Below, piece by piece: positions 2,310-61,198 of a DNA stretch of 64,000 nt (positions are counted from its first letter, which is position 1; every line of letters begins with the position of its first letter). The stretch lies in assembly GCF_964213995.1 (NCBI RefSeq), contig NC_135807.1, forward strand, positions 103,788,001 to 103,852,000. The letters run 5' to 3'. The notes beneath the pieces are model-generated. The model was not told the origin of the DNA, made no database searches, and saw only the letters and a program-made list of their open reading frames with translations. Origin of the DNA: Mustelus asterias (Eukaryota). Both the position numbers and the translations under genes were made by a program.

Positions 2310-3109
2310 GTAAGACCCTACACATTTTGAGTTAAACTTTCTGTTAAACTGCATGAAATTCGAGGGTAATGGAATCCTCCAAAACTTCTGAAGTCATCCT
2401 CCTTTGGAATTTTTTGTCTTTTAGTATGTATTTCATTTGTAATAGCTGAGACTTATTTGGAAACGTGTAAAAGTTGCTTTGTGTGATAGATACGTGTTGC
2501 TGCAAAGTGCCAGTAGTATTTATAACGGCATCTGCTGCTGGTTGTAAATGTTAGTAAAATATGAGTCCAAATCCTTGTCAAAATAACAAGTACGTGAAAA
2601 CAATGCTTAGTATGTTTGATCTATGAAAAAGATGAACAAGGAAATTAGATTTCCACAATAATCTAAAACTAAATTACTTAGATGATATTTTCTTTGTTTT
2701 AATGAGATTTGAAGCAATGTGTGGTATAATTTCAGTGGAGCAAAATGTCATTTAAGAATGATGTGGGGCTGAGCTGTGAATGCATATATTTATGTACAAT
2801 TTCAGTTCAGCAGTTCTCCACTTTTGTTTGTAGCATATTGACTATTCAGTGAGAATGCACGAGACATGCAGATGGAAGAGTTGATGGTTCTTTACTGCAT
2901 TGAAAGTGGTGCTAACCCCCAACCCATTAAATAACCATGCTCAAAACCACAATGTTGGCTGATACAAGTCCTTCAGAAATACACTTTTGCATATTGGCCA
3001 GACTGCTTCTGAGCTAATAGAAATATTGTATGCATCTGGAAGTTCCAAAAATTTCACGTGAGAGCATGATAGTTGCTATTTCATTGATTGGAAAACTTTT
3101 TTTTAATGG

Positions 3110-3240
3110 AAGCAAAATACTGCTGATGCTGGAACCTGAAACAAAAACAGAAAATGCTACGGAATCTCAGCAGGTCTGACAGCATCTGTGGAGAGAGCAG
3201 AGAGCCAATGTTTTGAGTCTGGATGACTCTTCTTCAGGAC
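3110..3240 (-). mobile_element. Short PLE pseudo-LTR derivative (family B) with decayed hammerhead motif
   Basis: Same family as 15251-15383 and 17102-17235. Minus strand reads CTGAAGA-A-GAGTC-atcca-GACTC-AAAA. Confidence 0.65.
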
Positions 3241-4772
3241 TGTTTTTAACCTTATTTTGCCTGACTCCACGCATGCAGTTCAGGATGCAGCCAGGGACAA
3301 CACTAGGATAGTTCATCAAACTGCTGATGCATACCTTTGCTCCTTATCATTAATAAAAGTCATAAGTAAAAGGTGAGAAAAACTTTGAGTTCAGTATCGA
3401 AGTATACACTTGGACTGGATACCACATGGATTAAATCTGGAAGTGCAAATTTTGATCTGCTTTATCAATATCGTTCTGAATAAATGTGCAAGTGCATTGT
3501 TTTGATAAAACTGGAATGGACCCAAATTGTAGGAAAAATGAAACAAATGTTAAAGCTACATAACCAACAGATAGGAGGAAAGCTGGACTCCATTTTGAAA
3601 CTTAAGGCAGTGGATTCGAATTCACCAGGTGAAAATGAATACAAAGGAATTATCTCATTAAAGGATAATTGGCTTTGTTCCAGCCCATACTGAGTCTTGC
3701 CACTGCTGAAACCCTTCGCCATCTTACCCTGCACACTTGATGAGATCCTATTTGTTAGGGGAAATATCCAGCCGCCTTGTATTTACTTCCTTTGAGAGAC
3801 TAGACAAAATTTTGTGAGTTTAAAGTTGGCCTTTATTCAAGCTGAAGCAGGGACAACCTCTTTCCACTCATGTGGCATACAGTCTCCCAAAACAAAGGAA
3901 TTTAATGACAATTATACCTTTAGGCTCAACTTGAAATAATTAACATAGATCAATCAAAATTGTACATGCATTTGAATATAAAATCAAATCCCAACTAATA
4001 GTTCTGGTCACTTAATTTGTTTCCCACAGTAGTATTTAACCAATTACAATAAGTCTACGCTTGCCTAATTGTCATGTCCAATCGTCAACTGGGCACATAC
4101 ACATAGCTACACCATCAATAAATACATGTCTATGCACCCTGAGCAGCGACTTATGACTGCTATCAAAGCACAGTGGAGTCTTGCGTTGTTATCTGGAAAG
4201 CAATGATGTATGTGGTGACAGCCCTCTTGTGGTCTATCAAAGTGCCTTGCAGCTGTACCTTCATTGTACCTTGCAGCTGTAATCATTTCCCAGGAACTTT
4301 TCTGCAGTTAACAATTTGTAACTCCTTCACTATTTGTTAAAAGTTTAGCCAACAATTCTGTTCTGTGCCAAATTCTGTCCATTCATCATTTTCTCCCTTG
4401 CTGGTTTCTGTCTGCATTGCATGATTTTAAAATTCTGCCCTGCATCCACGAAGCCTTTTTGAAACCTTCCAACATTCGCAGTATTCCATCCTCTGTCTTT
4501 TCTTCTTCAGATTCTAGTCCTCTTTACATCTTTTCTCCTTTTCCCCTACCATTGTGGAATACCCTTCAATTGCATTGGCTTTACTCTCTGTAACTGTCCA
4601 GTCCACCTTATATTTTCAAAAGCTTGTGTCAGATCATCTTTCTGATCACGCCATCAGATCTTTTCCTTCAATGCTTGGAGTTCATTCTCTTATCTAGTTT
4701 TTTTCTTCGTCTTTGGAATGAAAATTAAACTCAGTCCTTGCCTCAGGCAGATGTTAAAAACAAAACACCGAT

Positions 4773-7349: not shown

Positions 7350-7453
7350 AAAACAAAAAAACAGAAAATGCTGGAAAAACTCAGGTCTGGTGATATCTAT
7401 AGGGAAAGAAATAAGAGTTAACATTTCGAGTCCGTATTATTCATCTTCAGCTC
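7350..7453 (-). mobile_element. Short PLE pseudo-LTR derivative (family B)
   Basis: aaacagaaaatgctggaaaaactcaggtctgg...acatttcgagtcc...tcttcagctc. Minus strand has CTGAAGA...GACTC GAAA. Confidence 0.6.
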
Positions 7454-8211
7454 CAGTAAACTTATATACCTTCTCAACAGTCTTTTAAAGTCTTGATGGA
7501 GGGTCTGCTATCATATTTTCTTTTCGAAAAACACAAAATTAAAAAAAATTAAATAGCTGCAACGATAGACTCCAACAAAATAGTCTAGTGTTGCTGTCTT
7601 TAAACTTTTCCAGGAACCTTAATGGATTATGACCTGTAGGAACACAAGGCAAATTTTGGGTTGGTGCAGGAACTTCTTTTTATATACAGAAGAATAAACA
7701 CTGGAATAGACTTCAGGGATTAAGAAAGTGAGGCAATTAAGTAACAGTTGCTTGATAGGATTGTGATGTGGAGATGCCGGCGTAGGATTGAGAGGATTGT
7801 GTCAGTGGTGATAAAACCATTCTGGATGGATGAACCCTGATGGATTGCCTGTCTTATGTTTGTTTTGTTACTGCACAGCCTTTGCTAACTTCCTGACCTG
7901 TGACTGAGGTCAATAGGCCAGTCACCTTTTCCAAGTCTTGGAAACAAATGTGGTTGTTCAGGTTTCATCTTTTTTTGTCTTTCACTGCTATCTTCAGTTT
8001 AATTGCAAGGTGAAGGGGTTTGAACATTTGACCCTTCGATCAATTGCAAGATGAGTTTGTGCTTCAACTACATGGTTTGTTAGTGTCACCTGTGCTCTGC
8101 TTTCCATCTTCTTTATAACCCATTCTGAGAGTTGGAAAAGCAACAAAGTATTTAAATGTCAAAAAAAGCCAATTCTATGTCTTCATGAAGTTTTCTTTGT
8201 TAAATTCTTAG

Positions 8212-8310
8212 GAGCTGCAAATGGATCAACAAGCTAAGAAACATCTTCAGGATGAGTTTGAAGCAGCCCTGGAGGAAAAAGACCAACTTATTGGTGTTCT
8301 ACAGACACAG
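8212..8310 (+). CDS. GOLGA4: GOLGA4 coding exon (2nd in window)
   Basis: ttcttAG| acceptor, |GTAGAA donor. 99 nt, ELQMDQQAKKHLQDEFEAALEEKDQLIGVLQTQ, in frame with neighbouring exons. Confidence 0.93.
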
Positions 8311-8394: not shown

Positions 8395-11300
8395 ACAGGG
8401 GGTGGTGGGGGGGGGGAATGGGGATGGAGAGGGAGGCGGGGGGGACCCATGGGGGGACGGGAGAGGGAGGCAGGGACAGATGGGGGGTGGGAGAGGGGGG
8501 GGTCACATGGGGGACGGGAGAGGGAGAGAGGGGGCCCACGGGGGACGGGAGAGGGAGGGAGGGGGCCCACGGGGGACGGGAGAGGGAGGGAGGGGGCCCA
8601 CGGGGGACGGGAGAGGGAGGGAGGGGGCCCACGGGGGACGGGAGAGGGAGGGAGGGAGGGGGCCCACGGGGGACGGGAGAGGGAGGGAGGGAGGGGGCCC
8701 ACGGGGGACGGGAGAGGGAGGGAGGGGGCCCACGGGGGACGGGAGAGGGAGGGAGGGGGCCCACGGGGGACGGGAGAGGGAGGGAGGGGGCCCACGGGGG
8801 ACGGGAGAGGGAGGGAGGGGGCCCACGGGGGACGGGAGAGGGAGGGAGGGGGCCCACGGGGGACGGAGGGAGGGGGCCCACGGGGGACGGAGGGAGGGGG
8901 CCCACGGGGGACGGAGGGAGGGGGCCCACGGGGGACGGGAGAGGGTGGGAGGGGGCCCACGGGGGACGGGAGAGGGAGGGGGGGGCCGGGAGAGGGAGGG
9001 GGGGGGCCGGGAGAGGGAGGGGGGGGGCCGGGAGAGGGAGGGGGAGGACACGTGGGGGACATGGGAGGGAGGGGGAGGACACGTGGGGGACGGGAGGGGG
9101 AGGACACGTGGGGGACGGGAGGGGGAGGACACGTGGGGGACGGGAGGGGGAGGGGGAGGACACGTGGGGGACGGGAGGGGGTAGGGAGGGGTGGACACGT
9201 GGGGGAGCGGGAGGGGGTAGGGGGGACGGGAGTGGGAGGGGGGGAGCGGGAGAGGGAGACGGGAGGAGGGGAGCTGGAGAGGGAGACGGGTGGGGGGGAG
9301 CAGGAGGGGGAGAGCAGGAGAGGGAGGGGGGGAGCGGGGGAGGGAGTGGGTGGGGGGGGAGAGGGAGACGGGAGAGGGAGTGGGTGGGGGGGAGAGGGAG
9401 GGGGGGAGCGGGAGAGGGAGTGGGTGGGGGGGAGAGGGGGGGGGAGCGGGAGAGGGAGTGGGTGGGGGGGAGAGGGAGGGGGGAGCGGGAGAGGGAGTGG
9501 GTGGGGGGAGAGGGAGGGGGGAGAGGGAGGGGGGAGAGGGAGTGGGTGGGGGGGGAGAGGGAGGGGGGGAGAGGGAGTGAGGGAGGGGGGAGTGGGAGGG
9601 GGTGCGGGAGGGTGGGAGGGGGTGCGGGAGGGTGGGAGGGGGTGTGGGAGGGGGAGCAGGGGGAGGGCGAGGGGGAGGGGGCGAGGGGGAGGGCGAGGGG
9701 GAGCGGGAGGGCGAGGGGGAGCGGGAGGGGGTGAGGGGGGGGAGGGGGAGCGGGAGGGGGAGGGGGGAGGGGGAGCGGGAGAGGGGGGGTGGGGGCGAGG
9801 GGGAGCGGGGAGGGGGGCGAGGGGGAGCGGGTGGGGGGCGAGGGGGAGCGGGAGGGGGGCGAGGGGGAACGGGAGGGGGGCGAGGGAGTGGGAGCGCGAG
9901 GGGGAGCGGGAGGGGGGAGCGGGAGGGGGAGCGGGAGGGGGGAGCGGGAGGGGGGGCGAGGGGGAGCGGGAGGGGGGCGAGGGGGAGCCGGAGCCGGAAG
10001 GGGGCGAGGGGGAGCGGGAGGGGGAGCAGGAGGGGGAGCGGGGGGAGCGGGAGGGGGGCGAGGGGGAGCGGGAGGGGGGCGAGGAGGGGGGCGAGGGGGA
10101 GCGGGAGGGGGAGAGGGAGGGGGGGCGGGAAAGGGAGGGGGGCGGGGGAGAGGGAGGGGGGGCGGGAAAGGGAGGGGGGCGGGGGAGGGGGCCGAGGGGG
10201 AGAGGGAGGGGGGGGCGGGAGAGGGGAGGGGGGCGGGGGAGGGGGCCGAGGGGGAGAGGGAGGGGGGCGGGGGAGGGGGAGAGGGGGGCGGGGGAGGGGG
10301 AGAGGGTGGCGGGAGCGGGAGGGGGGCAGGAGGGGAGAGGGAGGGGGGAGCGGGAGAGGGAGGGGGGAGCGGGAGAGGGGGGGGGAAGGAGCGGGAGGGG
10401 GGGACGGGAGCGGGAGGAGGAGCGGGAGGGGGGGAACGGGGTGAGGGGGGGAAACGGGGGGTAACGGGGGGAGGAGTGTGAGGGGGGAAACGGGGGGAGG
10501 AGGAGTGGGAGGGGGGAAACGGGGGTAGGAGGAGTGGGAAGGGGGGAAACGGGGGTAGGAGGAGTGGGAGGGGGGGAAACGGGGGGTAACGGGGGGAGGA
10601 GTGTGAGGGGGGGAAACGGGGGGAGGAGGAGTGGGAGGGGGGGAAACGGGGGGAGGAGGAGTGGGAGGGGCGGAAACGGGGGTAGGAGGAGTGGGAGGGG
10701 CGGAAACGGGGGTAGGAGGAGTGGGAGTGGGGGAAACGGGGGGTAACGGGGGGAGGAGTGTGAGGGGGGGAAACGGGGGGCGGAGGAGTGGGAACGGGAG
10801 GAGGAGTGGGAAGGGGGAACGGGAGGAGGAGTTGGGGGGGGACGAGAGAAGGAGTGGGAGAGGGGGGACGAGAGAAGGAGTGGGAGAGGGGGGACGAGAG
10901 AAGGAGTGAGAGGGGGGACGAGAGAAGGAGTGGGGGGGGGACGAGAGAAGGAGTGGGAGAGGGGGGGACGAGAGAAGGAGTGGGGGGGGGGGGGACGAGA
11001 GAAGGAGTGGGAGGGGGGGACGAGAGAAGGAGTGGGAGGGGGGGGACGAGAGAAGGAGTGGGAGGGGGGGGACGAGAGAAGGAGTGGGAGGGGGGGGGAC
11101 GAGAGAAGGAGTGGGAGGGGGGGGACAAGAGAAGGAGTGGGGGGGGACGAGAGAAGGAGTGGGCGGGATGGGAGGAGGTGTGGGAGTGAGGGATGGGGGG
11201 AGAGGAGGGGGGGCGATGGGGGACGGGACAGGTGGGGTGTGGGGGGGGAGATGGGGGATGGGAGTGGGGGGGGTAGGAGGGGGCGATGGGGGAACGGGAG

Positions 11301-13330
11301 CAGGCAATGGGGGCAGGAGAGGGAGCGGGAGGGGGGCGATAGGGGACGGGAGGGGGAGCGGGGGGGCAAGGGGGGTGATAGAGGGAGCGGGAAGGGGGTG
11401 CAATGGGGGGTGGGGGGTTGTGATGGCGATGGGATCGGGAGGAGGGACAATGGGGGACAGGATCGGGAGGAGGGACAATGGGGGACGGGGGGGGAGACGA
11501 TGGTGGATGGGAGAGGCACGGGGGGACGATGGGAGACGGGAGAGGGAGCAAGGGTGGTGGGAGGCAGGGATGATGGGGGACGGGAGAGGGAGCGCGGTGG
11601 GAGGGGGGGCGGGAGAGTGAGGGGAAGGGTGAGGGAGGGGGGACGGTTGAACAGGGGTCGCGGGAGAGTGAGGGAGGCGACGTAGTGGTGCGGGGCGGGG
11701 GTGGAAGGTAGAGGGGAGGGGGACAGGAGAGGGCGCGGCGGGGGGGACAAGATTTGGAGACTAGGCGTGAGATGGAGAGGGAGGTGGGGGTGTGCAGGGG
11801 GAATGGGAGGGGGGACGGGGAGAGGGGTAGAGGGGGAGGGGGACATGAGATCGGGGGGATGATAGAGGGGGAGGGGGGATGGGACGGGGGGGCGATGGGG
11901 GATGGGAGAGGGAGGGGGGACGGGTTGGGGGCGGGGGGATGGGTAGGGGCGGAGGGGGGAGGTGGCAGAGGGGCAGGTGGGAGTAGAGAGGGGGGAACGG
12001 GAGAGAGAGGAGGCGGAGGGAGGGGGAATGGGTCAGTGGGGAAACGGGAACAAGTGGGCGGAGGGGGGGACTGGAGAGGCAGTGGGTGGAGGGGGATGTG
12101 AGGGGGGGACTGGAGAGGCAGTGGGTGGAGGGGGACGAGACGGGGTGGTGGCCGGAGGGGGGGGCGTGCGCGGAGGGGACAGAGACGCGGAGGCTGGGGG
12201 CGGGTTGGGTCTGTGCTGGCAATCGTGGTAGGGCGGGCCAGCAGTCAGGGGAGGTGGGGTGGGGGTGACACGGCAGGGCTGGTGGGGCTATTGTCTGTGT
12301 TTCGGGGGCAGGCGGGTACCAGGCGGCAGAGCTGGGGCATTGTGGGGCTGGGGTTCATTGAGGGGTCAACAGTGGTATGGGTTGGGGCTGATATCTGCAC
12401 TTGGGGGATGGATCGGCAGGCATTCAGGGCGATGGCGCATGTATCAGCTTGCGGGGAGAGGCAGGGCCAGTGATCGGCGGAACAGGTTGGGGCCTGCGAC
12501 TTGACGGGGATGACCACGACAGGCGATTGAGGGTGGACGGCACGGCCGGCCATAAGGGGTGGCCGAGGCAAAGGACACGGGTTGACAATTGGGAGGGGCG
12601 GTGTCGGTCCGGCAATCGGCGTGGATGGGCTGGCAAGCGGGGAGGTGAGGGAATAGGCAGGGCCGGCGATTGGGTGGGTGGGGGTCAGCAGGGCGGGTTG
12701 GTGATCTGGGGACTCAGAAGGGCAGGCGTTCGGGTGGGTACTGACGCCAGGGAGGGAGTGGCAGGCAGGGTGGGGTCGGAGGTCAACTGTCGGATGGGTG
12801 AGGCTGATGATCCGGGAATGGCGCTGGTACCTGTGATTGGGGGGGGGGGGGGGGGGGGCGGGGGGGGCGTGGGCAGGGCAGGTACCAGCGATTGGTGGGG
12901 TTCGAGGCCAGCCAGGCAGGGTGAGGGTGAGGCCTGCAATTGGTGGTGTGGGTGGGGAGGAGACGGGGAGGGCAGGCAGACGGGGCCGGTGATTGGAGGG
13001 GGAGGGCGAGGACATGCCAGGAAAGCAGTGGGGCCAGGCTGGTGAGCGGGTGGGGTTTGTGGGGAAATAGGCGGGGACAGTAGGGTGAGTTGGCGATCCG
13101 GGGACGGGGCTGCTACCTACGATAGGGAGGGTGGGCCAGTTACTGGCCAGTGGAGTTGGGGGGGATGGCGCAGGGCCGGCAGTCAGGGGTGGGGCAGGTG
13201 GGCTGGCAGCTGTGATCATGGGGACGGTGCAAGGCAGGTCCGGTGTTCGGGATACCTGTGATTTGTGGGGTGGGCGGGATGGGGTGGGACTGTGATTGGA
13301 GCAGCCAGGGTGGACAATGGGTGAGGCATG
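8395..13330 (+). repeat. Compound G-rich minisatellite / low-complexity tract
   Basis: Successive arrays of ~22-35 bp G-rich units, e.g. gggcccacgggggacgggagagggagggagg, gggaaacggggggaggaggagtgggagg and gggacgagagaaggagtgggaggg. More degenerate after ~12200. Confidence 0.95.
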
Positions 13331-14356: not shown

Positions 14357-15250
14357 GTGATGCCTTTCATCTAATCTGAAAGTTAAATTAACAAAATTTA
14401 AAAAAAGCTTTCCTAGTTACAGATGTGCAGACACTCTGAGGGGAGGGGGGGGGGTTTCCCTAAATGTTATGGGGCTGGAATTTACTGTAAAAACAGTGAA
14501 ACTTGGGGCACGGATTGTTATCTGTGCTTGAATCAGACAGCAACGTCAGACGAGGGCAAATAGCCATTAAATGTAAAAATCCAGAATTTGCTTTTTGAAA
14601 TGTTGCTTCAAACAGCATCCTGCTGTCCAGCTTCCCATTCAAATGTATTGAGCTGGAAGAAATTCCTGTACTGTAGATGGGGACGAAACTCGCCTGGAAA
14701 GTTTGGGCTCATCCATTGCGCAAGTGCTCTTTGAACTGTGTGACAAGTCTCAAATACTGCCTGACAATCTCTCTGGTGCTCAAATGTGGAATCTTATTGC
14801 TTCAGCTTTTAGCTTTTGTTGGAGATTTTAATAGATTGTAGTTTGTTTCACTTTTGCTTTCCTTGTTTCTCTTGCAATCCAATCTTTCCCCTGTATCTGA
14901 TTTGACATTGAATTCTCTATTTAACAGGTTCAGACTCTGCATTGTTCATTAACACTGTTCAGTTTGGTTAAAAAGATGCACATTTGCTTGCTGTGTTCAT
15001 GTAGACCCTAAATTCTCTGTAGAGGCTGCCATGCCATTTTGGTCTTCCTCTTGTGGCAACTTACAATTTGTAAAGGCTCCTGGAACTTCAACAGATGACA
15101 AATCATCTGACACATATTGGGTGCCATTTGTTTGTTGGCTACAGTGAATTCTGGCTCATTGTATATGTTAAGCCACTATGTATTTTTCATCGTTTTCCAA
15201 AGCACTTAGAATTTATTTTTAACACTAACAGGTGAATTCCAGCATTCATA

Positions 15251-15383
15251 ATTTTGACAAAGGAGTCATCTGGGCTCGAAACGTCAGCTCTTTTTTCTCC
15301 TTGCAGATGCTGCCAAACCTGCTGAGATTTTCCAGAGTTTTCTCTTTTGGTTTCAGATTCCAGCATCCGCAGTAATTTGCTTT
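15251..15383 (+). mobile_element. Short PLE pseudo-LTR derivative (family B) with U3:A8 hammerhead motif
   Basis: TTGACAA-AG-GAGTC-atctg-GGCTC-GAAA-CGTC-AGCTC followed by the family body ...cagattccagcatccgcagtaatttgcttt. Confidence 0.7.
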
Positions 15384-16124
15384 CATTCATAATTTTGCTC
15401 TGTGCAGTTTTATGGCCTTGGTTATGATACAAGTACAAAAGCCTGAAGTCCCTGTTGGTAATTTAATTCCTTGTTCGTGATTAAACAATTTTTATGCTGT
15501 GCATCAACAAATCATTTTGAATTACAAAAAAAATTTCCTCAATTGGATTGTATTAGAAACAAAATGAGAAACTTTAACTTTTAAGCACGCGAGAAATCCT
15601 TGTCTGCTTGGGCTGATTGACTTGATAGATTTGTAGCTCTCACTCTGAAATTGTTAACAGTCAAAATTTTAGATCGTTGTTCTGTTAGTGATCAGTGTTT
15701 AAAGTGGGTACTTGAGGGAATTCTTGAAGTGAATTGAGAAAAATGTTGAAGATTCATTTTTCACAAATACGCTAAAATTATTTTTACTTGATATGTTTTT
15801 TGAGTTTGTACAAGACTGGCTTTAAAGTTTTGCAATTAATATTTCAAGTTTTTTTTATTAATGGTCAGTTAATTTGAGAATCAAATTTCTGGCCTTGTCA
15901 GACATTGAAATGAGATTTAATAGAACATAGATTTAGTCAAGTATGATGAGTGACAATTTGACATTTCAAGTTTATGTTACATTAGTAATTGATTTTACAA
16001 TATCAGTAAACAATTCTAATAGTTTTAGTGTCTGTGTTAACACGGGGAAAATATTGTGGCGTAGTTTGCAGACATTCTTTTACAGTTCTGTTGCTAACAA
16101 ATGAGTTACCATTGTGTCATACAG

Positions 16125-16309: not shown

Positions 16310-16361
16310 GTGAATTTCAAAATGGGTGGAGCTTTTCTTTGCTCTGGGTTCCCTTTTATAC

Positions 16362-17009
16362 TGTGGAGATGCCAGCGTTGGACTGGGGTAAACACAGTAA
16401 GAAGTTTACAAACACCAGGTTAAAGTCCAACAGGTTTATTTGGTAGCAAAAGCCACAAGCTTTCGGAGCCTTAAGCTCCTTCTTCAGGTGAGTGGGAATT
16501 CTGTTCACAAACAGGGTATATAAAGACACAGACTCAATTTACAGAATAATGGTTGGAATGCGAATACTTACAGCTAATCAAGTCTTAAAGGTACAAACAA
16601 TGTGAGTGGAGAGAGCATTAAGACAGATTAAAGAGATGTGTATTGTCTCCAGGTAGGACAGCCAGTGAGATTCTGCAAGTCCAGGCAAGCTGTGGGGATT
16701 ACAGATAGTGTGACATGAGCCCAATATCCCGGTTGAGGCCGTCCTCGTGTGTGCGGAACTTGGCTATCAGTTTCTGCTCAGCGACTCTGCGCCGTCGTGT
16801 GTCGTGAAGGCCACCTTGGAGAACGCTTACTCGAATATCAGAGGCCGAATGTCCATGACTGCTGAAGTGCTCCCCAACAGGAAGAGAACAGTCTTGCCTG
16901 GTGATTGTCAAGCGGTGTTCATTTGCTGCGCTGCAGGAAAGGATGACCCGAGGCATGGTACATTGGGGAAACCATGCAGGCACTGCGACAACGGATGAAT
17001 GAACACCGC
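16362..17009 (-). mobile_element. 5'-truncated Penelope-like element (family A): GIY-YIG C-terminus, pseudo-LTR with hammerhead, inverted 5' piece
   Basis: Minus frame NEHRLTITRQDCSLPVGEHFSSHGH...RRRRVAEQKLIAKFRTHEDGLNRD. Plus-strand 16929-17009 reads WYIGETMQALRQRMNEHR (YIG motif). Hammerhead motif at 16454-16490. Confidence 0.85.
16454..16490 (-). ncRNA. Minimal type I hammerhead ribozyme motif
   Basis: CAC-CUGAAGA-A-GGAGC-uuaag-GCUCC-GAAA-GCUU-GUG: complete core, stem II, palindromic mini stem III, stem I CAC/GUG. Confidence 0.7.
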
Positions 17010-17058
17010 CCTGCCGGTCGCCCCGGCGCGTCCGCCCTGCCGGTCGCCCCGGGCTGAT

Positions 17059-17235
17059 GAAAAGAGCTGATGTTTCGAGTCCAGACGACCCTTGGTCAAA
17101 GCTTTGACAAAGGGTCGTCTGGACTCGAAACGTCAGCTCTTTTCTCTCCTTACAGATGCTACCAGACCTGCTGAGATTTTCCAGCATTTTCTCTTTTGGT
17201 TCCAGATTCCAGCATCCGTAGTAATTTGCTTTTAT
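17059..17235 (+). mobile_element. Family B PLE derivative with fold-back 5' duplication (43-bp arms)
   Basis: Palindrome centred on AAG|CTT (17101/17102), then the family B body. Confidence 0.75.
17100..17138 (+). ncRNA. Minimal hammerhead ribozyme motif, U3:A8 variant
   Basis: AGCU-UUGACAA-A-GGGUC-gucug-GACUC-GAAA-C-GUC-AGCU, with a GUC cleavage triplet. Confidence 0.65.
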
Positions 17236-17796
17236 GACTCTGTAGCCCTTCCACTAAGTCATTTAGAAATATTGTGAAAAGCTGAAGCCCCAGTGCAAAT
17301 CCTTGGTTGAGACCACTAGATGCATCTTGACAACTAGAGTGCCTCTCTCTGTCTCTTGCCTCCTAACCAATTCCCCACCGTGCCAACGGATTGCCTCCAA
17401 TTCAATGCATGCAAATTTTAGTTAAATTTTTTATGTGGAAACTTATTGAATGCTGTCTGCAAGTTCACATAAATAACATTAATTGACACTGAAATATTTT
17501 TGTTATTGCAAAACGTTGAGCTAGGTTTGTTGGATATTATGTAACCATATACAAATCCATCCTGCTTCTTGCTGATAAAATCATATTTGACCAAATGCTC
17601 AGTTACTCTATTCTAGGTGACAAATTCTAATAAGTCCCCAAAACAGACACTAGAAAAATCAGTTTCAAATGTTCTAATTTTTCTCTTAATCATTCTTAAA
17701 TAATAGTGATATTGGCAATTATCCAATCCATGGACAAATTGCATTTTGTAAGATTATGATTGAAGCATCTCCAACTTCCTCACCTGCTCCCTTTAA

Positions 17797-18064: not shown

Positions 18065-19250
18065 CCCCTCGAGCCTGCCCCGCCATTCAATAAGATCATG
18101 GCTGATCTGATAGTGGTTTAGTTCCACTTACCAGCCCGCTCCCCATAACCCTTAATTCCCTTATTGATCAGAAATCTATCTACCTGTGACTTAAACATAT
18201 TTAACGAGGTAGCCTCCACTGCTTCAATGGGCAGAGAATTCCAGAGATTCACTACCCTCTGAGAGAAGAAATTCCTCCTCACCTCTGTTCTAAACTGACT
18301 CCCCCTTATTTTGAGGCTGTGTCCTCCAGTTCTTGTTTCCTTTCTAAGTGGAAAGAATCTCTCTGCCTCTACCCTGTCTAGCCCAACATTCCATTTGCCT
18401 TCTTGATCACCTGCTGCACCTGCAAACTGAGTTTTTGCGATTCATGCACAAGGACTCCCAGGTCCCTCTGCACAGTAGCATGTTGTAATTTTTCACCATT
18501 TAAATAATAGTCCATTTTACTATTATTCCTTCCAAAGTGAATAACCTCACACTTGTCAACATTATACTCCATCTGCCAGATCCTCGCCCACTCACTTAGC
18601 CTATCCAAATCTTTCCGCATCCTCCACGCAATTCGCTTTCCCACTCATCTTTGTATCATCCGCAAACTTTGTTACCCTACACTCGGTCCCTTCCTCCAGA
18701 TCATCCATGTATATGGTAAACAGTTGAGGCCCCAGCACCGATCCCTGCGGCACACCACTAGTCACCAACTGCCAACCAGAAAAGCACCCATTTATTCCAA
18801 CTCTCTGCTTCCTGTTAGATAGCCAATCCTCAATCCACGCTAACACTTTACCACCAACTCCATGTACCTTAATCTTCTGCAGCAACCTTTTGTGAGGCAC
18901 CTTATTGAACGCCTTCTGGAAATCCAAAAACACCACATCCACCGGTTCCCCTCTGTCAACCGCACTCGTTACATCTTCATAAAAATACAGTAAATTCGTC
19001 AAACACGACTTTCCCTTCATGAATGCATGCTGCGTCTGCTTGATCGAACCATTTTTTTCCAGGTGTCCTGCTATTCTTTAATGATGGATTCCAGCAATTT
19101 CCCAACTACGGACGTTAAGCTAACCGGCCTGTAGTTACCCGCCTTTTGTCTACCTCCTTTTTTAAACAGTGGCGTCACATTCGCTGTTTTCCAATCAGCC
19201 GGTACTTCCCCAGAGTCCAGCGAATTTTGATAAATTACAACCAACGCATC
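18065..19250 (-). mobile_element. CR1 LINE 3' portion (RT), internally deleted
   Basis: Minus ORFs contain GKSCLTNL, LDFQKAF, SGVPQGSVLGP, KFADDTK and WQMEYNVDKC. Confidence 0.92.
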
Positions 19251-19454
19251 TATTTACTTATCTTTGCAACAAGTTGCCAATTTTCTCATATTTACAACGA
19301 TGGAACTTTTGAACAGAAACCAAGTGAATTCACAGAAAAAGAGATAAAATAGGAATGTGAAGCTAATTTAAGAGATTGACATTGTCATAAGCTTGTGATC
19401 ATGCTGTGTGTTGTACCAATTTTTGGATAATGGTGCAGGAGGATTTGTTTTTAG

Positions 19455-19690
19455 TCATGGCTCGGTTGGTCGCACTTTGCATCTGAATCACAAGACTCTG
19501 GGGTTCAGGTCACACTCCAGGCCTTGGGCACAAAGTTTTGGCTGACTTTGCAGTGCAGTTCTGAGGGAATGCTGCATCGTCGGATATTTGGATCAGATGT
19601 TAAATCGAGGCCCCACCAGCCCCTTCAGGTGGCTGTGAAACATAGTAGAGCACTTTCTTGAAGAAGCGTAAGGGAGATAAACCCGGTTTG
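19455..19690 (+). mobile_element. Deu-domain SINE (SacSINE1/AmnSINE1-like)
   Basis: tRNA-like head followed by ctgagggaatgctgca..gatgttaaatcgaggcccc..caggtgg..gaagaagc, resembling the recalled Deu domain. Confidence 0.65.
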
Positions 19691-19779
19691 TAAATGCCTT
19701 TTACTATGTTGTAAGTATTGTCCAATATAATCAGGATATCTGATGGAAAATGTCTTTTCACGTTGTTTATTTTCTTCAG

Positions 19780-19863
19780 GATCTGCACTCTGCTGAAAAG
19801 ACTAAACTAATCACTCAACTTCGCGATGCAAAGAATTTAATTGAACAATTGGAACAAGATAAG
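19780..19863 (+). CDS. GOLGA4: GOLGA4 coding exon (5th in window)
   Basis: ttcttcAG| acceptor, |GTGAGC donor. 84 nt, DLHSAEKTKLITQLRDAKNLIEQLEQDK. Confidence 0.95.
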
Positions 19864-22308
19864 GTGAGCAGTACTTCAGTCAGGTGAGTGGGATAATGTC
19901 TCATTAACAGCTGTTGGAAATAGCTGGAGCAGTTACATTCTGCATTGCATGAGTTGCCGCAGAGGTGACCCAGGCTCTAATTCAGCCATGCAGTAGGTTT
20001 TGCACTGAAGTAATTGATGTATTTCTGTAAAGTGCATTGATCTTTGTTAGCACAAATTATTGCTAACATAGTTTTATTGGTGGTAGAACATAGAACATTA
20101 CAGCGCAGTACAGGCCCTTCAACCCTCGATGTTGCGCCAACCAGTGAAACCAATCTAAAGCCCATCTAACCTACACTATTCCAATATCATCCATATGTTT
20201 ATCCAATGACCATTTAAATGCCCTTAATGTTGGCGAGTCCACTGCTGCTGCAGGCAGGGCATTCCACGCCCTTACTACTCTCTGAGTGAAGAACCTATCT
20301 CTGACATCTGTCCTATATCTATCACCCCTCAATTTAAAGCTATGTCCCCTCGTGCTAGCTATCACCATCCAAGGAAAAAGGCTCTCACTATCCACCCTAT
20401 CTAAGCCTCTCACTATCCACCCTATCTAAGCCTCTGACTATCCACCCTATCTAAGCCTCTGATCATTTTGTATGCCTCTATTAAGTCACCTCTTGACTTT
20501 CTTCTCTCTAACGAAAACAGCCTCAAGTCCCTCAGCTTTTCTTCATAAGACCTTCCCACCATTCCAGGCAACATCCTAGTAAATCTCCTCTGCACCCTTT
20601 CCAATGCTTCCACATCTTTCCTATGATGCTGTGACCATAACTGTACGCAATACTCCAAGTGCGGCCGCACCAGAGTTTTGTACAGCTGCAACATGGCCTC
20701 CTGGCTCCAAAACTCAATCCCTCCACCAATGAAAGCTAACACTCCGTACGCCTTCTTAACAACCCTATCAACCTGGGTGCCAACTTTCAGGGATCTATGC
20801 ACATGAACACCCAGATCCCTCTGTTCATCCACACTACCAAGTATTTTACCATTAGCCCAGTACTCTGTATTCCTGTTACTCCTTCCAAAGTGAATCACCT
20901 CACACTTTTCCGCATTGAACTCCATTTGCCACCTCTCAGCCCAGCTCTGCAGCTTATCTATGTCCCTCTGTAACCTGCAACAATCTTCCGCACTGTCCAC
21001 AACTCCACCGACTTCAGTGTCATCCGCAAATTTACTAACCCATCCTTCTACGTCCTCATCCAGGTGATTTATAAAAATGACAAACAGCAGTGGCCCCAAA
21101 ACAGATCCTTGTGGTACACCACTAGTAACTGAACTCCAGGATGAACACTTCCCATCAACCACCACCCTCTGTCTTCTTACAGCTAGCCAATTCCTGATCC
21201 AAACCGCTAAATCACCCTCAATCCCATGCCTCCGTAACTTCTGCAATAGCTTACCGTGGGGAACCTTATCAAACGCTTTACTGAAATCCATACACACCAC
21301 ATCAACTGCTTTACCCTCATCCACCTCTTTGGTCACCTTCTCAAAGAACTCAGTAAGGTTTGTGAGGCACGACCTACCCTTCACAAAACCGTGTTGACTA
21401 TCCCTAATCAAATTATTCCTTTCTAGATGATTATAAATCCTATCTCTTATAATCCTTTCCAAAACTTTGCCCACAACAGAAGTAAGGCTCACTGGTCTAT
21501 AATTACCAGGGTTGTCCCTACTCCCCTTCTTGAACAAGGGGACAACATTTGCTATCCTCCAGTCTTCAGGCACTATTCCTGTAGACAATGACGATATAAA
21601 GATCAAAGCCAAAGGCTCTGCAATCTCCTCCCTAGCCTCCCAGAGAATTCTGGGATAAATCCCATCTGGCCCAGGGGACTTAGCAATTCTGGAAAGTGTG
21701 AAAATAGATAACACCTCCTCCTTATTAACCTCAATCCCGTCTAGTCCAATAGTCTGTATCTCAGTATTCTCCTCGACAACATTGTCTTTTTCCTGCGTGA
21801 ATACTGACGAAAAATATTCATTTAGTGCCTCTCCTATCTCTTCAGGCTCCATGCACAACTTCCCACTACTGTCCTTGACTGGCCGTAATCTTACCCTCGT
21901 CATTCTTTTATTCCTGACATACCTATAGAAGGCTTTATGGTTTTCCTTGATCCTACCTGCCAAAGACTTCTCATGTCCCCTCCTGGCTCCTCTTCGGTCT
22001 CCCTTTAGGTCCTTCCTGGCAAACTTGTAACTCTCAAGCACCCTAACTGAGCCTTCACGTCTCATCTTTACATAAGTCTTCTTCTTCCTCTTTACAAAAG
22101 ATTCAACTTCTTTAGTAAACCACGGTTCCCTCACTCGACCAGGTACATACTTATCAAGGACACCCAGTAGCTGTCCCTTGAAAAAGGTCCACATTTCAAT
22201 TGTGCCCATCCCCTGCAGTTTCCTTCTGCAACCTATGCATCCTAAATCTCGCCTAATCGCATCATAATTTCCTTTCCCCCAGCTATAACTCTTGCCCTTC
22301 GGTATATA

Positions 22309-23258
22309 TCTTTGTGATTTTTATAAATGACCTGGATGAGGAAGTGGAAGGATGGGTTGGCAGGTTTGCTGATGACACAAAGGTTGGTGGTGTTGTGGAT
22401 AGTGTAGAGGGATGTCAGCAGTTGCAACGAGACATAGATAAGATGCAAGACTGGGCGGAAAGGTGACAGATGGACTTCAACCCAGATAAGTGTGTGGTGG
22501 ATCATTTTGGCAGGTCGAATAGGATGAAAGAAGATAATATTAAGGGTAAGATGCTTGGCAGTGTGGAAGATCAGAAGGATCTTGGAGTCAGGGTTCATAG
22601 GACGCTCAAAGCAGCGTCGCAGTTAGAGGCTGTGGTTAAGAAGGCGTATGGAATGCTAGCCTTCATCAATAGAGGAATTGAGTTTGGAAATCGGGCGATA
22701 ATGCTGCAGCTGTATAGGACCCTGGTCAGACCCCACCTGGAGTACTGTGCCCAGCTCTGGTCGCCTCATTACAGAAAGGATGTGGAAGCCATAGAAAGGG
22801 TGCAGAGGAGATTTACAAGGATGTTGCCTGGATTAGGTGGCATGCCTTATCAGGATAGGTTGAGAGAGCTAGGTTGTTTCTCCTTGGAGAAGCGAAGGAT
22901 GAGAGGTGACCTGAGAGATGTGTATAAGATGTTGAGAGGTATTGAAAGAGTGAATTCTCAGAGACTTTTACCCCGGGCTGAAATGGTTGCCACAAGAGGT
23001 CACCGGTTTTGGGTGCCCGGGAGTAGGTACAGAGGAGATGTTAGGGGTAAGTTTTTCACTCAGAGGGTGGTGGGTGCGTGGAATCGGCTGCCAGTAGTGG
23101 TGGTGGAGGCGGAGTCGATAGGGTCTTTTAAGAGACTTTTGGATAAGTTCATGGAAGTTAGTAAGATAGAGGGTTATAGGTAAGCCTAGTAGGTAGGGAC
23201 ATGTTCGGCGCAACTTGTAGGCCGAAGGGCCTGTTTGTGCTGCAGCTTTTCTATGTTC
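22309..23258 (+). mobile_element. 5'-truncated CR1 nested in the host CR1, opposite orientation
   Basis: FADD motif and 237-aa C-terminal ORF 22470-23183. Tail ctatgttc. TATA flanks both ends (22305-22308, 23259-23262). Confidence 0.9.
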
Positions 23259-23971
23259 TATACCTATTCCTTTCCATCGCTAAAGTAAACGTAACCGAAT
23301 TGTGGTCACTATCACCCAAGTGCTCACCTACCTCCAAATCTAACACCTGGTCTGGTTCATTACCCAGTACCAAATCCAATGTGGCCTCACCTCTTGTTGG
23401 CCTATCTACATACTGTGTCAGGAAACCCTCCTGCACACATTGGACAAAAACTGACCCATCTAAAGTACTCGAACTATAGTTTTTCCAGTCAATATTTGCA
23501 GAGTTAAAGTCCCCCATAACAACTATCCTGTTACTTTCGCTCCTATCCAGAATCATCTTTCCAATCCTTTCCTCTACATCTCTGGAACTTTTCGGAGACC
23601 TATAGAAAACTCCCAACAGGGTGACCTCTCCTTTCCTGTTTCTAACCTCAGCCCATACTACCTCAGTATGAGTTCTCATCAAACGTCCTTTCTGCCACCA
23701 TAATACTGTCCTTGACTAACAATGCCACACCTCCACCTCTTTTACCACCTTCCCTGCTCTTACTGAAACATCTAAACCCCGGAACCTGCAACAACCATTC
23801 CTGTCCCTGCTCTATCCATGTCTCCGAGATGGCCACAACATCGAAGTCCCAGGTACCAACCCATGCTGCAAGTTCACCCACCTTATTCCGGATGCACCTG
23901 GCATTGACGTATACACACTTCAAACCACCTTTCTGCCTGTCAGTACACTCCTGCGACGCTGAAACCTTATT

Positions 23972-43010: not shown

Positions 43011-43136
43011 TCAATTTATTGCAGTATTGTGGAATTAATGTCCAAAATAATTCATAGGACAATTTCATAAATAAGTGTTCTTCATCCCTTTTTTAAAACT
43101 TGAATGGGAATTATTTGTCAGTATAAAATCTATAAA

Positions 43137-43279
43137 ACCTAATCAATGAAAATCTCAGTTTTTGCCCACAGAATTTCCTGAGGTGTTTTACTCAGCAATT
43201 TTTAGGGAAAAGCAAGATTGCTGAGTAAAACACCTCAGGAAATTCTGTGGGCAAAAACTGAGATTTTCATTGATTAGGT
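43137..43279. repeat. Perfect 63-bp inverted repeat with 17-nt spacer
   Basis: 43137-43199 is the exact reverse complement of 43217-43279. Confidence 0.97.
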
Positions 43280-44029
43280 ACCATATATCTTAAGCATGTA
43301 TTGTAATAACAGTTGGTTGATTCAAAATGTTATATTTATTTAAATAATGAGGTTAAAAGCAGATTCAAATTGTTATATCGCTATTTGCTCCTTTAACTTT
43401 AAAATAGTTGTTTTTTTCAGTGGTTTTTGGATTTATTGAACGATATGGAGTTGAGAATCAGTCTTCAACAATCATGTAAAGTAACAAGAAACCTCCATTG
43501 ATATTCTTATTGTTTTATGGAGAAGTTTACTAAATTTATAATGCAATGTATTTCAAAGGTGGGGAACATAATTGCTGATGGAGATTTTAGTTGATAGGAG
43601 TTTGAAGCTCTAATAAATTGGTTTACGTATTTTGTTGGAATATTTCAGTCCTGTACTTGCATTGGTCCATTTTCTCAGCCATATCACATAAAACATAATT
43701 TAGCCAAGTACATCTTAAGCATTTTCAATGAATGTGTGAATTTGCGCTTCATCAATTTTCAATGGTGGACTTAAATCTGGTACTGCATATTGGAATACCG
43801 TGATTTAATTATAATGTTTGCGACCTCATCCTGATGCTGAAAAGCTAATATATTATGTTTAAAGAGCAGGGTACCTTGGGGCTGTCAAAAGATTTTGCTG
43901 AATTACTCTTAACTTTTGATTTGTTCAACTTCTGTACACATTTGAATGTGAGTCTGGTTGACAGAACTACAAGAAATGCACATGTTAACAGATTTGATCT
44001 TAGTGTTGAGTTTTCTTTCGTTTCTTCAG

Positions 44030-44208
44030 CGTTCGAGGAGCTTGAGAAAGCACTGGTCACAGCTCAGAAATCTGAAGATAAGCGTAAGAAGCTGAAGCAA
44101 GAAATGGAAAAGCAGATCACAGTTATAGAGCAATCAAGTGAAGAACAAAAAAAGAGTTTGCAACACGAGCTATCACAGGTCAAGCTGGAAATGGTTAATG
44201 TATTGAAG
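44030..44208 (+). CDS. GOLGA4: GOLGA4 coding exon (7th in window)
   Basis: ttcttcAG| acceptor, |GTAAGA donor. 179 nt, (A)FEELEKALVTAQKSEDKRKKLKQEMEKQI...MVNVLK. The phase-1 start matches the previous exon. Confidence 0.93.
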
Positions 44209-44950
44209 GTAAGAAAACTAAAATGTAATGAGGATCTTTTAAACTTAGGTAGATTTATTTCTGTAGCAAGTGGAGTTGATAGTTCTTTTGGTGCGAGATG
44301 AATGTTCCTGTATTGTTTTATACACAGTAATTATAGGCAAGGAGTTTCTGCTAAATTTTAATCTTCCCACAAAAATAAAAAAAAGTGTTCTTTGCTTATT
44401 TCTCACAAAATTGCATGCCTTTAAAAAAAAATGTCATTTTTGAAATTTGCTCCTGCATCATGTTAAAAAACGAAGACTTCCAGGTGGCAATCAAGGACTT
44501 TACTTGCAAGGCCTTTTTAAAGTAAAAAATAAATCATCTCAGAATCCTGAAATTAAAGTTGAAAATTGCTAGACTGATTTCGTTTGAACTACTACATGCA
44601 TAATGACCAAGATGTTGACGTGAAACGAGGGCACCCACTGTTGACCTAACGATCTCTATGTGTAGTTTTCCTAATTCACCAAAGGAAGTTTAAATATCAT
44701 ACCAAGTCAAGGGACATCTTCACGTACAGCTGTGACGATGTCAGCAATCAGGTAAGGAGCTAATTACAGTATTCACACACAGCAAAGTAAGAAATGAAAA
44801 GCCCTTTACTTTTAATTTAAATCTTTAGATAATGAAATAACGTCATCCAGTCGACTGTCATTATTGATGATTTCAAAATATGAAGAGCTGGAGGGAAAAG
44901 TCAAGATATATGTTTTTAATTTATCTAATATATTACATGTGTGCAGTATT

Positions 44951-51830: not shown

Positions 51831-52020
51831 ACCTCTGACTCCCTTATAGATCAAAAATTGTTTTGACTCATCCTTGAATATATACAATGACCCAACCTCC
51901 AATGCTCACTTGAGAGAGTTCCAAAGGTTAACAAACCTTTGATATAAGAAATTCCTCCTTGTCTCCGTTTCAAATGGAAGATCTCTAATTTTGAAATGTC
52001 GCCCCTGGTGTCAAGAGGGG

Positions 52021-52460
52021 AAACACTGTAAGAAGTCTCACAACACCAGGTTTAAGTCCAACAGGTTTATTTGGTAGCAAAATCCACTAGCTTTCGGAGC
52101 GCTGCTCCTTCGTCAGGTAAGTGGGAGTTCTGTTCACAAACAGGGCATATAAAGACACAAACTCAATTTATGAAATAATGGTTGGAATGTGAATCTTTAT
52201 AGGTAATCAAGTCTTAAAGACTTTTGAAAGCCTTTAAGACTTGATTACCTATAAAGATTCGCATTCCAATCATTATTTTGTAAATTGAGTTTGTGTCTTT
52301 ATATGCCCTGTTTGTGAACAAAACTCCCACTCACCTGACGAAGGAGCAGCGCTCCGAAAGCTAGTGGATTTTGGTACCAAATAAACCTGCTGGACTTTAA
52401 CCTGGTGTTGTGAGACTTCTTACTATGTTTACCCCAGTCCAACGCCGGCATCTCCACGTC
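52021..52460. mobile_element. Family A PLE pseudo-LTR fold-back insertion (~200-bp arms)
   Basis: 52021-52219 versus 52232-52430 are inverted. Direct repeat agaggggaaaca at 52014-52025 and 52462-52473. Confidence 0.9.
52332..52366 (+). ncRNA. Minimal type I hammerhead ribozyme motif
   Basis: CAC-CUGACGA-A-GGAGC-agc-GCUCC-GAAA-GCUA-GUG, on the GOLGA4 sense strand. Confidence 0.7.
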
Positions 52461-56944: not shown

Positions 56945-57760
56945 AAAAAGAACATAGCACAGTACAGGCCCTTCGGCCCTCGATGTTGTGCCGAGATTTG
57001 TCCGAAACCAAGATCAAGCTATCTCACTCCATATCATTCTAGTGTGTTCCATGTGCCTATCCAATAACCGCTTGAAAGTTCCTAAAGTGTCCGACTCCAC
57101 TATCACAGCAGGCAGTCCATTCCACACCCCAACCACTCTGAGTAAAGAACCTACCTCGTACATCCCTCCTACATCTTCCACCACGAACCTTATAGTTATG
57201 CCCCCAGTAACAGCTACATCCACCCGAGAAAATAGTCTCTGAACGTCCACTCTATCTATCCCCCTCATCATCTTATAAACCTCTATTAAGTCGCCTCTCA
57301 TCCCCCTCCGCTCTAAAGAGAAAACCGCTAGCTCCCTCAACCTTTCCTCATAAGACCTACCCTCCAAACCAGGCAGCATTCTGGTAAATCTCCTCTGCAC
57401 TCTCTCCAATGCTTCCACATCCTCCTTATAGTGAGGTGACCAGAACTGCACACAATATTCCAAATGTGGTCTCACCAAGGTCCTGTACAGTTGCAGCATA
57501 ACCCCATGGCTCTTAAACTCAAACGCCCTGTTAATAGACGCCGACATACTATAGGCCTCCTTCATGGCTCTATCCACTTGAGTGGCAACCATCAGAGATC
57601 TGTGGATTTGAACCCCAAGATCTCTCTGTTCCTCCACATTCCTCAGAACCCTGCACTCCGCATTCAAATTTGTCCTACCAAAATGAATCACCTCGCACTT
57701 ACCAGGCTTAAACTCCATCTTCCATTTTTCGGCCCAGCTCTGCATCCTATCAATGTCTCA
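56945..57760 (-). mobile_element. 5'-truncated CR1
   Basis: 243-aa ORF 57014-57745: WKMEFKPGKC, RPHLEYCVQFWSP, ERVQRRFTRMLPG. Confidence 0.92.
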
Positions 57761-58359
57761 AAAAGTAATGGAGAATGAATTAATGGGAAAAAATTAAATT
57801 TTTGCTTTGTTTTGTTCCCGACAACTATGGTTGTAATAATGTAGGTCCATTAGAGGAGGATATGGAACACTGTTACATGTAACTGGGAAATAAATTGGTT
57901 TTGAACAAGTTGTGCAACCTGATTGTCTTGGTGCCATGTGCCCATAGCTGTTGAAGTTTAAGGTGGAGATAGCGCATCTGAGTTTAATTTTTCAAACTTG
58001 CTTTCAGTTGTGAAGGACAACTTGGAAGTATCTAGTTTAATGCTTCTGTTTGAAGACATAGAGAAAATTAAATTTTCTAAATACAGGCTACTTATTCTGA
58101 TGTCAGTAGGAAACTTTGAAAAAGCCATGAGTTGCAATGAAATGATACTTATTGCACAATCAAGATAATCGGTTCAAGGAAGTTCTTTACAAATTGAATA
58201 TTTTTGAAAGCAAAGACTGAGTAGATAATGAGAATGTAGTAGCTATGTGGATTTTAATTAAGCGTTCAACAAAAGTATTTTTTTAAAAAGTGTATAAGAG
58301 GAAATGTTACAACGTGGCTTAAAACCTGATCGGAAAGGAAATAAAGAGGAAGGATACAA

Positions 58360-58700
58360 AAAGCAAGATACAGCAGATGCTGTTAATCTGAAATAAAAAT
58401 TGAAAATACTGGGAATACTCAGCTGGTCAGGCAGCATCTGTGGAGAGAGCAGGTAAAATTTCAGGTTGATAACCTCTCTTCATAATAAAAGTAAAATACC
58501 GTGGATACCGGAAATCTGAAACAAACAAATGCTGGAAAAAAACTCCGCATCTGGAGAGAGAAATAGAGTTGACATCTGTATGACTCTTCAGAGCTTTGAA
58601 GAAAAGTCATACAGACTCAAAATATCAACTCTGTTCTTCTCTCCATAGGTACTGCCAGACCTGTTGGGTTTTTCCAGCGTTTCCTGTTTTTGTTTCAACT
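58360..58700. mobile_element. Cluster of family B PLE derivatives including a fold-back pair
   Basis: One copy at 58360-58480 and a palindromic pair at 58490-58700 centred on AG|CT (58593/58594). Confidence 0.7.
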
Positions 58701-58879
58701 TTATGCATGATTAGTTGCTGAACTGGAGAACGATTGGTAGTGATGTGCCCTGGAGTACCCTGAGTGTCTACTTTTGTGGTCTGTATCAAGAAATTATTTG
58801 GACATGGGCATGGAAAGCACAATATCAAAATCTCCAAATGGCACAAAATGTGGTTCTGTCGTTCTAAATGTATTTGAAT

Positions 58880-60355: not shown

Positions 60356-61044
60356 GTATGTATCATGTAATCTGAGATTTTTATTGCATGCTAAATAGAT
60401 CAATCATTTTTTGTCATTGCTAAATGCATATTGGGGAACAATGCTGCACGTACCATGTCTCATTAGTACCCTTACTGAAGTCTCCCCACCTGGCCTCACT
60501 CAGATTGTCATGGTAATGGTGTGGCTCTTAAAATCAAATGAAACTTTGGTCTGTCCCCTTATTGCTCTGATTCTTTACCTGCTTTGTATATCTTATATTT
60601 GTCATGCATGCCTATTTTCTGCTTCATCTTACTCGCTATCTCTTTCAGCATGGAGAGATTGCCCTATCTTTTTCTGTCATGGAAATGAACCTTGACTCTA
60701 CCCAAACCAAATCAAATCCTCTTTAAAGGCAGCTCATTGCTCTGTTACAGTTTTAAATGCCCATCTTTGCTTACAATTTTTAAAAATGTATTTTTATTGA
60801 AGATTTTTCATTTGAACAAGTAACGCAACAAACCCTCAAAATTTGGTACAGCAATTTTTCCACATCTGTATACAGAAAGAGACAGGTAAAACATCAGTAC
60901 AATTAGTTCAAATTATACATTGTAATCAGCACCTCTCACTCTCCAGTCAATGAAAAGATATTTCAAAAGAATAAAGTCATAAATATATGGCATAGTGGTG
61001 CACACCCTTGCTTATCGGATAACAGAGAGAGAGAGAGCTGCAAA

Positions 61045-61198
61045 ATGAAAAAATGCTGGGAAATCTCAGCAGGTCTGGCAGCATCTGTAAGGAGAGAAAA
61101 GAACTGATGTTTCACGTCCAGATGACCCTTTGTCAAAGATTTTCCTGCATTTTCTCTTTTGGTTTCAGATTCCAGCATCCGCAGTAATTTACTTTTAC
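61045..61198. mobile_element. Family B PLE derivative, inverted two-part insertion
   Basis: Minus part 61045-61138 has TTGACAA-AGGGTC-atctg-GACGT-GAAA. Plus part 61139-61198 is the element 3' end. Confidence 0.7.

Follow-up and report, generated by a model that had tools for sequence, protein, structure and literature searches.

Background

Minimal hammerheads with a U3-A8 core, and a descriptor for finding them, have been described from Penelope-like elements (PLEs) of Schistosoma. In the sections available of that paper, the Cercyon elements of S. mansoni gave ~ 1,300 matches with a dedicated descriptor, and in its supplement two S. mansoni families appear with U3-A8 cores and a PLE-associated Saccoglossus motif with a U3-G8 core (PMC4209133). 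Natural U3/A8 covariation had been reported in 2011, in a paper whose available passages state that such hammerheads had earlier proved active in vitro (PMC3088659). PLE hammerheads show poor cleavage on their own, and one of them could be dispensed with for insertion in vitro; according to the available parts of PMC11167929, this hammerhead, from an Anolis PLE, needed the element's protein in order to cleave, and its cut site showed no RNA-seq ends. In cartilaginous fishes, one chondrichthyan has been scanned with canonical and minimal models, and the part available of that preprint mentions no core variant (bioRxiv 10.64898/2026.07.22.740005). In the literature searched we found no shark U3:A8 case, though the paper on variant PLE hammerheads by Lunse, Weinberg and Breaker (RNA Biol 14:1499) may cover one.

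Here we analyzed 64,000 nucleotides of Mustelus asterias (contig NC_135807.1, positions 103,788,001 to 103,852,000), called the window below. It contains a 136-bp repeat whose young subfamily carries U3:A8 in place of C3:G8. We consider it probable, though far from certain, that the repeat is the pseudo-LTR of a shark PLE and that selection on a master RNA, which needed the 3:8 pair for self-cleavage, preserved that pair. A sequence-only reading of the window had pointed to the motif, and we report below how far its claims hold.

Results and discussion

The focal motif lies on the forward strand at 17100-17138 and reads AGCU-UUGACAA-A-GGGUC(gucug)GACUC-GAAA-C-GUC-AGCU, exactly as first reported. 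Sequence and descriptor match make it a complete type I hammerhead motif of minimal form, in which position 3 is U and position 8 is A. Stem I has 4 bp (AGCU 17100-17103 with AGCU 17135-17138), followed by the core, with U3 at 17104, A8 at 17109, and A9 at 17110. An extra unpaired A at 17111 separates A9 from position 10.1, and stem II has 5 bp including one G-U (17112-17116/17122-17126), closed by the G10.1-C11.1 pair (G17112-C17126). GAAA (G12 to A15.1) occupies 17127-17130 and CGUC (C15.2, G16.2, U16.1, C17) occupies 17131-17134, with the predicted cut after C17134; helix III is loopless and consists of the palindromic ACGU at 17130-17133. The core boxes U4 G5 A6 N7, A9, G12 A13 A14, A15.1-U16.1, and H17 are all present. 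Bases 3 and 8 (U17104 and A17109) are complementary and are predicted to form the tertiary pair. Each of the features associated with PLE hammerheads was found here, namely the extra base between 9 and 10.1, the G10.1-C11.1 pair, the palindromic 15.2-16.2 stretch, and the short helix I.

A relaxed descriptor run on both strands of the window returned five complete motifs, the focal U3:A8 motif and four with C3:G8. In 200 dinucleotide shuffles, means of 0.035 U3:A8 and 0.005 C3:G8 matches were observed per window, and no shuffled U3:A8 match had a stem I of at least 3 bp, which puts the complete focal hammerhead far above the shuffled background. It had been predicted that CUGANGA searches would miss this form, and this is borne out; the Rfam covariance models were also silent, with 13 matches in the window at E up to 5, none of them to a hammerhead family. 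The four C3:G8 motifs, which are canonical, were likewise missed by these models at the same threshold. In folding models, a hammerhead-like monomer made up 2% of the ensemble, and the active dimer form was placed at -16.9 kcal/mol against a minimum of -23.6 kcal/mol in the cofold model. The modeled energies thus do not favor active folds, fitting the low activity reported for such motifs in the sections available of PMC4209133.

The hammerhead opens a full 136-bp unit of the young subfamily of the repeat (17100-17235, + strand), which we call family A, and is followed by a tail of ~ 100 bp. Contig depth falls sharply past 17235, both edges of the unit (17100 and 17235) appear among the listed loose ends, and about ten relatives of the unit were found within the window. 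The tail itself (17139-17235) has two stretches of pyrimidine tract plus CAG that resemble splice acceptors. Upstream lies an inverted 5' arm on the reverse strand (17059-17101), placed head-to-head and 95% complementary to the forward arm, so that the two form a 43-bp palindrome (17059-17101/17102-17144) with its axis on the stem I AGCT. Two differences separate the arms, one at position 8, which is C in the inverted arm (mismatch 17094/17109, giving the core UUGACCA, or U3:C8), and one at G16.2, which the inverted arm has lost. A transcript through both arms folds, in the model, into a hairpin of -74 kcal/mol, which makes ribozyme activity of the focal copy improbable. This copy is probably inert, and the hairpin would sequester its hammerhead.

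Exon-like coiled-coil coding stretches with splice-site context occur at 8212-8310 and 44030-44210 (+), which would make the focal motif probably intronic and on the sense strand. A search for the host gene of these stretches returned a generic coiled coil and no gene name; we take them to resemble golgin A4.

Next to the palindrome lies a fragment of a second PLE family, family B, that is 5'-truncated and 5'-inverted (16362-17009, - strand). It includes a GIY-YIG C-terminus, of which a GIY-YIG-type fragment at 16702-16914 (-) has up to 90% identity to proteins of Mustelus, Scyliorhinus, and Heptranchias, and its ORF ends in a family B pseudo-LTR bearing a canonical C3:G8 hammerhead at 16487. 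This adjacent ORF was considered as the parent of the U3:A8 motif and rejected, as its pseudo-LTR is a different one. The intact, canonical C3:G8 minimal hammerheads found by the descriptor are all of family B (16487, 46671, and 52116 on the - strand and 52335 on the + strand), and 52017-52434 holds a 208-bp head-to-head inverted pair of this family with 94% complementarity. Near-identical flanks of 10-11 bp (16353-16362 and 17229-17239) bracket a segment, 16353-17239, that holds the fragment of family B, a duplication of 21 bp rich in GC (17006-17052), and the palindrome of family A. A single event, primed from opposite strands, may have brought both PLE families into this target site. Other repeats in the window include ~ 4 kb of G/A-rich low-complexity sequence with extreme strand skew (8400-12400) and several LINE reverse-transcriptase fragments in 18600-23700 and 57000-57760 (RVT_1 at 20422-22317). 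A long near-perfect hairpin at 43133-43283 draws sub-threshold Rfam matches to miRNA families; we rejected a miRNA identity, given the length of the hairpin and scores below gathering, and it is probably a MITE-like repeat.

Two further young copies of family A carry UUGACAA. The copy at 15243-15397 (+) has the string at 15254, with A8 present and the 5' strand of stem I lost, and is flanked by 14-bp target duplications (15243-15256/15384-15397). Because the first three core bases lie inside this duplication, its U3 is no independent witness. The copy at 61034-61215 (-) has the string at 61136, a 12-bp target duplication, a damaged stem II, and, as a 5' inversion, a piece of tail in inverted orientation attached at the core. 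Both have damaged stems, and neither passes the descriptor. An older subfamily is represented by a copy at 3102-3245 (-) with CUGAAGA at 3237 (C3:G8, G12 lost), a copy at 7355-7455 (-) with CUGAAGA at 7450 (C3:G8, stem II damaged), and a palindrome spanning both strands at 58352-58714, whose + arm is U3:G8 (UUGAAGA, 58596) and whose - arm is C3:G8 (CUGAAGA). A further tail fragment follows the palindrome in partial tandem (old tail fragments, 58352-58604), and apart from this partial array no head-to-tail tandem units with complete hammerheads were found in the window. Apart from that of the - arm of this palindrome, these core strings had all been listed in the sequence-only reading and are present where it placed them. 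Its description of the U3:A8 copies as separate holds for the letters and fails for their independence, given the duplicated U3 at 15254 and a shared master. That reading had overlooked the inverted arm of the focal copy, the position of the 15254 U3 within a duplication, and the published Schistosoma precedent.

A readable core remained in 8 of 10 family A arms, with three U:A, three C:G, one U:G, one U:C, and no C:A combinations at positions 3 and 8. The C:G copies belong to a more diverged subfamily than the U:A copies, and the invariant core of the young and older copies in the window differs at positions 3 and 8 only. A check of covariation in the stems and at 3:8, the latter as had been suggested, gave no signal beyond that of shuffles (320 of 500 for the score) in a nine-row alignment of window copies with several rows out of register. 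The 3' ends of the window copies, which are few, fall either near 17197 (two copies) or at 17231-17235 (three besides the focal one), forming two classes ~ 38 nt apart.

Contigs from four runs, representing four organisms, were aligned to 17082-17245 at a likeness of at least 80%, with differences listed from 4%. These are 4 of the 23 runs listed, one of which (X1) may come from the window's own source, and between 38,092 and 57,073 contigs were aligned per run; contig depth does not equal copy number here, and base frequencies are marginal, not joint for positions 3 and 8. The core bin had only 5-16% of the peak depth seen in the tail, since older subfamilies are lost on the way to it, ending as loose ends at 17141 and 17152. 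At 17104, 17108, and 17109 (positions 3, 7, and 8), no alternative letter reached 4% in any of the four runs, although position 3 lies just 5 bases inside the edge of the element, close enough for mismatches to be hidden by clipping. C3 and G8 are therefore each below 4% among copies that are at least 80% alike. Meanwhile, the CpG bases 17126, 17127, 17131, and 17132 showed decay of 7-37%, with the ancestral base retained in 63-93%, and G12 had become A in 9-29%, so inserted copies decay freely. The majority sequence in the four organisms keeps the other invariant bases, the G10.1-C11.1 pair, both stems, and the helix III palindrome.

A second read-out came from spurious ORFs of other family A copies in protein collections, for which 14 proteins were returned and 13 read, the remaining one (P0041) being dropped because no stretch of it passed. 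Position 8 was reached by 8 of the 13, seven reading A8 and one (P0037) reading G8 after C7, so a CpG-bearing precursor state exists. Position 3 appeared as one U3 and no C3, five proteins stop short of the core, and no protein gives both position 3 and position 8 within a single arm. P0028 contains a match to DEG, which was discarded as unrelated sequence. Pattern scans for further copies gave no match and then one match to an unrelated coding stretch in metagenomes, none in viral sequences, and one, taken as chance, in prokaryote genomes. Pieces of these shark repeats occur inside predicted proteins and are a likely source of annotation artifacts or exonization.

A master with C7-G8 would leave mostly G8 and a visible C7-to-T class among its copies, so A8 does not look like a decay product. 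From these alignments we conclude that A8 was present in the master of the young subfamily and, with less certainty, that U3 was too. The claim that the double change sat in a master element is thus upheld by the contrast between alternatives below 4% in all four runs and CpG decay of 7-37%. The further claim, that several copies preserving the pair imply selection for self-cleavage, fares less well: the U3:A8 copies descend from one master, so what is seen is a single compensatory event and not repeated covariation, and "several copies" was overstated. Selection for cleavage is inferred from this one double change together with the retention of the other core bases. As a rough post hoc estimate, two changes among ~ 11 invariant positions would fall on the 3:8 pair about 1 time in 55.

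In the mechanism we propose, C3 would have changed to U first, giving a U-G wobble, and G8 would then have become A by deamination of the C7-G8 CpG, restoring a Watson-Crick pair. The G8 form with C7 in P0037 and the U3-G8 core listed for Saccoglossus make this route probable. Since helix III lacks a loop, cutting would need a partner RNA (a dimer through the self-complementary ACGU) or the element's protein; either way, cleavage of the master RNA after C17 would be slow. As the cut site is unbroken in the copies, their template RNA must have been uncut or rejoined; genomic copies would be dead inserts, reverse-transcribed from 17235 across such a site. Reverse transcription would then run as far as stem I, at the 5' edge of which the cDNA would often invert, and the focal copy, when transcribed, would be locked in its own hairpin. 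Absence of cleavage as monomer or dimer had been put forward as evidence against the U3:A8 ribozyme; given the protein dependence of the Anolis hammerhead, a negative result with RNA alone would not be decisive.

The strongest competing explanation, which we regard as unlikely but still a serious contender, places the change in the master without selection: the ribozyme would already have been dispensable, and U3 and A8 would be ordinary transitions, one of them CpG-driven, that hitchhiked in a successful master. The event is single (n = 1), G8-to-A is a favored CpG change when N7 is C, the state seen in P0037, and the copies run intact across the cut site. Hammerhead mutants of the Anolis element insert unimpaired in vitro (PMC11167929, in its available sections), and Naiad PLEs thrive without canonical hammerheads, according to the part available of PMC8557442. 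Drift of this kind sits poorly, however, with the majority sequence in all four organisms retaining the rest of the core, the stems, and the helix III palindrome, and with the identical pair swap in Schistosoma PLEs (PMC4209133, in part).

Describing family A as PLE-derived fits its architecture, while an ORF of its own to back this, with reverse transcriptase and GIY-YIG, was not found within the 64-kb window. Head-to-head inverted 5' copies with a junction palindrome are present in family A and have been described for PLEs (PMC3846280 and PMC8557442, in the parts available). The target duplications of 14 bp and 12 bp are of the variable PLE type, and the two 3' end classes, known from few copies, match the optional 30-40 bp PLE tail. 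Opposite-strand joints started at 17097-17102 in 11 of 15 cases among the joints listed (151 more exist), with sites further upstream not scorable with the reference used. Both arms end at the AGCT in three protein read-outs (P0028, P0030, and P0034); we therefore rejected the idea that the AGCU at 17100 is a mere inversion artifact. These patterns hint that reverse transcription stops or inverts at the 5' edge of the ribozyme. Among the 24 rows listed (934 more exist), loose ends did not pile up at the cut site, a result that concerns contigs only and is neutral either way.

The gathering of inversion joints at this edge also fits a second and rather improbable alternative, in which the stretch is kept as a splice acceptor, a promoter, or a site bound by the element's protein, its hammerhead shape being a relic. 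A pyrimidine-rich consensus of loose ends upstream of 17100 (runs X9 and X16, with an agreement of only 0.4) leads into the AG at 17100-17101 and looks, weakly, like a splice acceptor; this upstream motif had no match in the window. The arrangement resembles the D. virilis case, in which, in the source as available, an intron ends at the 5' end of helix I. Such roles, however, leave the complementary double change at 3:8 and the kept GAAA-CGUC box unexplained, and they are compatible with cleavage. A third alternative, that copies of a C3:G8 or U3:G8 master were individually deaminated to A8 after insertion, could draw on position 8 differing between the focal arms (A versus C) and position 3 between the 58596 arms, but it is largely refuted by the contigs, in which G8 and C7-to-T are each below 4% in four runs while true CpGs retain the ancestral base in 63-93%, and with A8 in 7 of 8 protein read-outs we give it hardly any credence.

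Returning to selection on a self-cleaving master, a bolder version can be tentatively drawn, which we hold to be doubtful as a whole. A hugely amplified shark PLE subfamily would have crossed the valley from C3:G8 to U3:A8 through the wobble and CpG steps and would still be an active, protein-assisted ribozyme, and the palindromic AGCU at the 5' edge of stem I (perhaps also a splice acceptor), rather than the cut site, would fix the point at which reverse transcription stops and inverts. If true, this would account for the head-to-head junctions of PLEs and would turn shark genomes into a dated natural experiment on what makes PLEs retain their hammerheads.

Conclusions

Shark family A is a new and abundant case, in a further host lineage, of an already published U3:A8 variant, and not a new ribozyme class. 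U3:A8 has been fixed a second time, probably independently, in a vertebrate subfamily of very high abundance. This adds to the evidence that the fold is under selection, and the older C3:G8 relatives in the same genomes provide a datable series for testing it. Counts of shark hammerheads made with C3:G8 descriptors would come out too low.

The following comparisons rest on the available portions of the cited papers. Non-LTR retrozymes are also short non-coding repeats with a type I hammerhead and are related to PLE pseudo-LTRs (PMC7229834; bioRxiv 10.64898/2026.07.22.740005), but they form head-to-tail arrays with a complete hammerhead per unit, whereas young family A copies are solo or head-to-head and carry a minimal motif. 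The natural U3/A8 hammerheads of PMC3088659 share the compensatory pair and are not tied to PLEs or vertebrates in the passage available. Vertebrate PLE hammerheads (Xena, Poseidon, and Neptune, from fish, coelacanth, Xenopus, and reptiles) are, like family A, minimal type I motifs with a GAAA-CGUC end (PMC4209133; Anolis Poseidon, PMC11167929); their tail extends ~ 100 nt past the cut, and their 3' ends fall into two classes ~ 38 nt apart (PMC4209133, PMC11167929). Unlike family A, the vertebrate motifs listed in PMC4209133 all have C3:G8, and no cartilaginous fish is among them. The closest match is Cercyon of Schistosoma mansoni (PMC4209133), which shares the core swap, the extra base between 9 and 10.1, the G10.1-C11.1 pair, the loopless palindromic helix III, the short helix I, and copies that are mostly single and dispersed. 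Family A differs from it in its shark host, its shorter stem II (5 bp), and its unrelated stem sequences, so U3:A8 probably arose separately in the shark and in Schistosoma.
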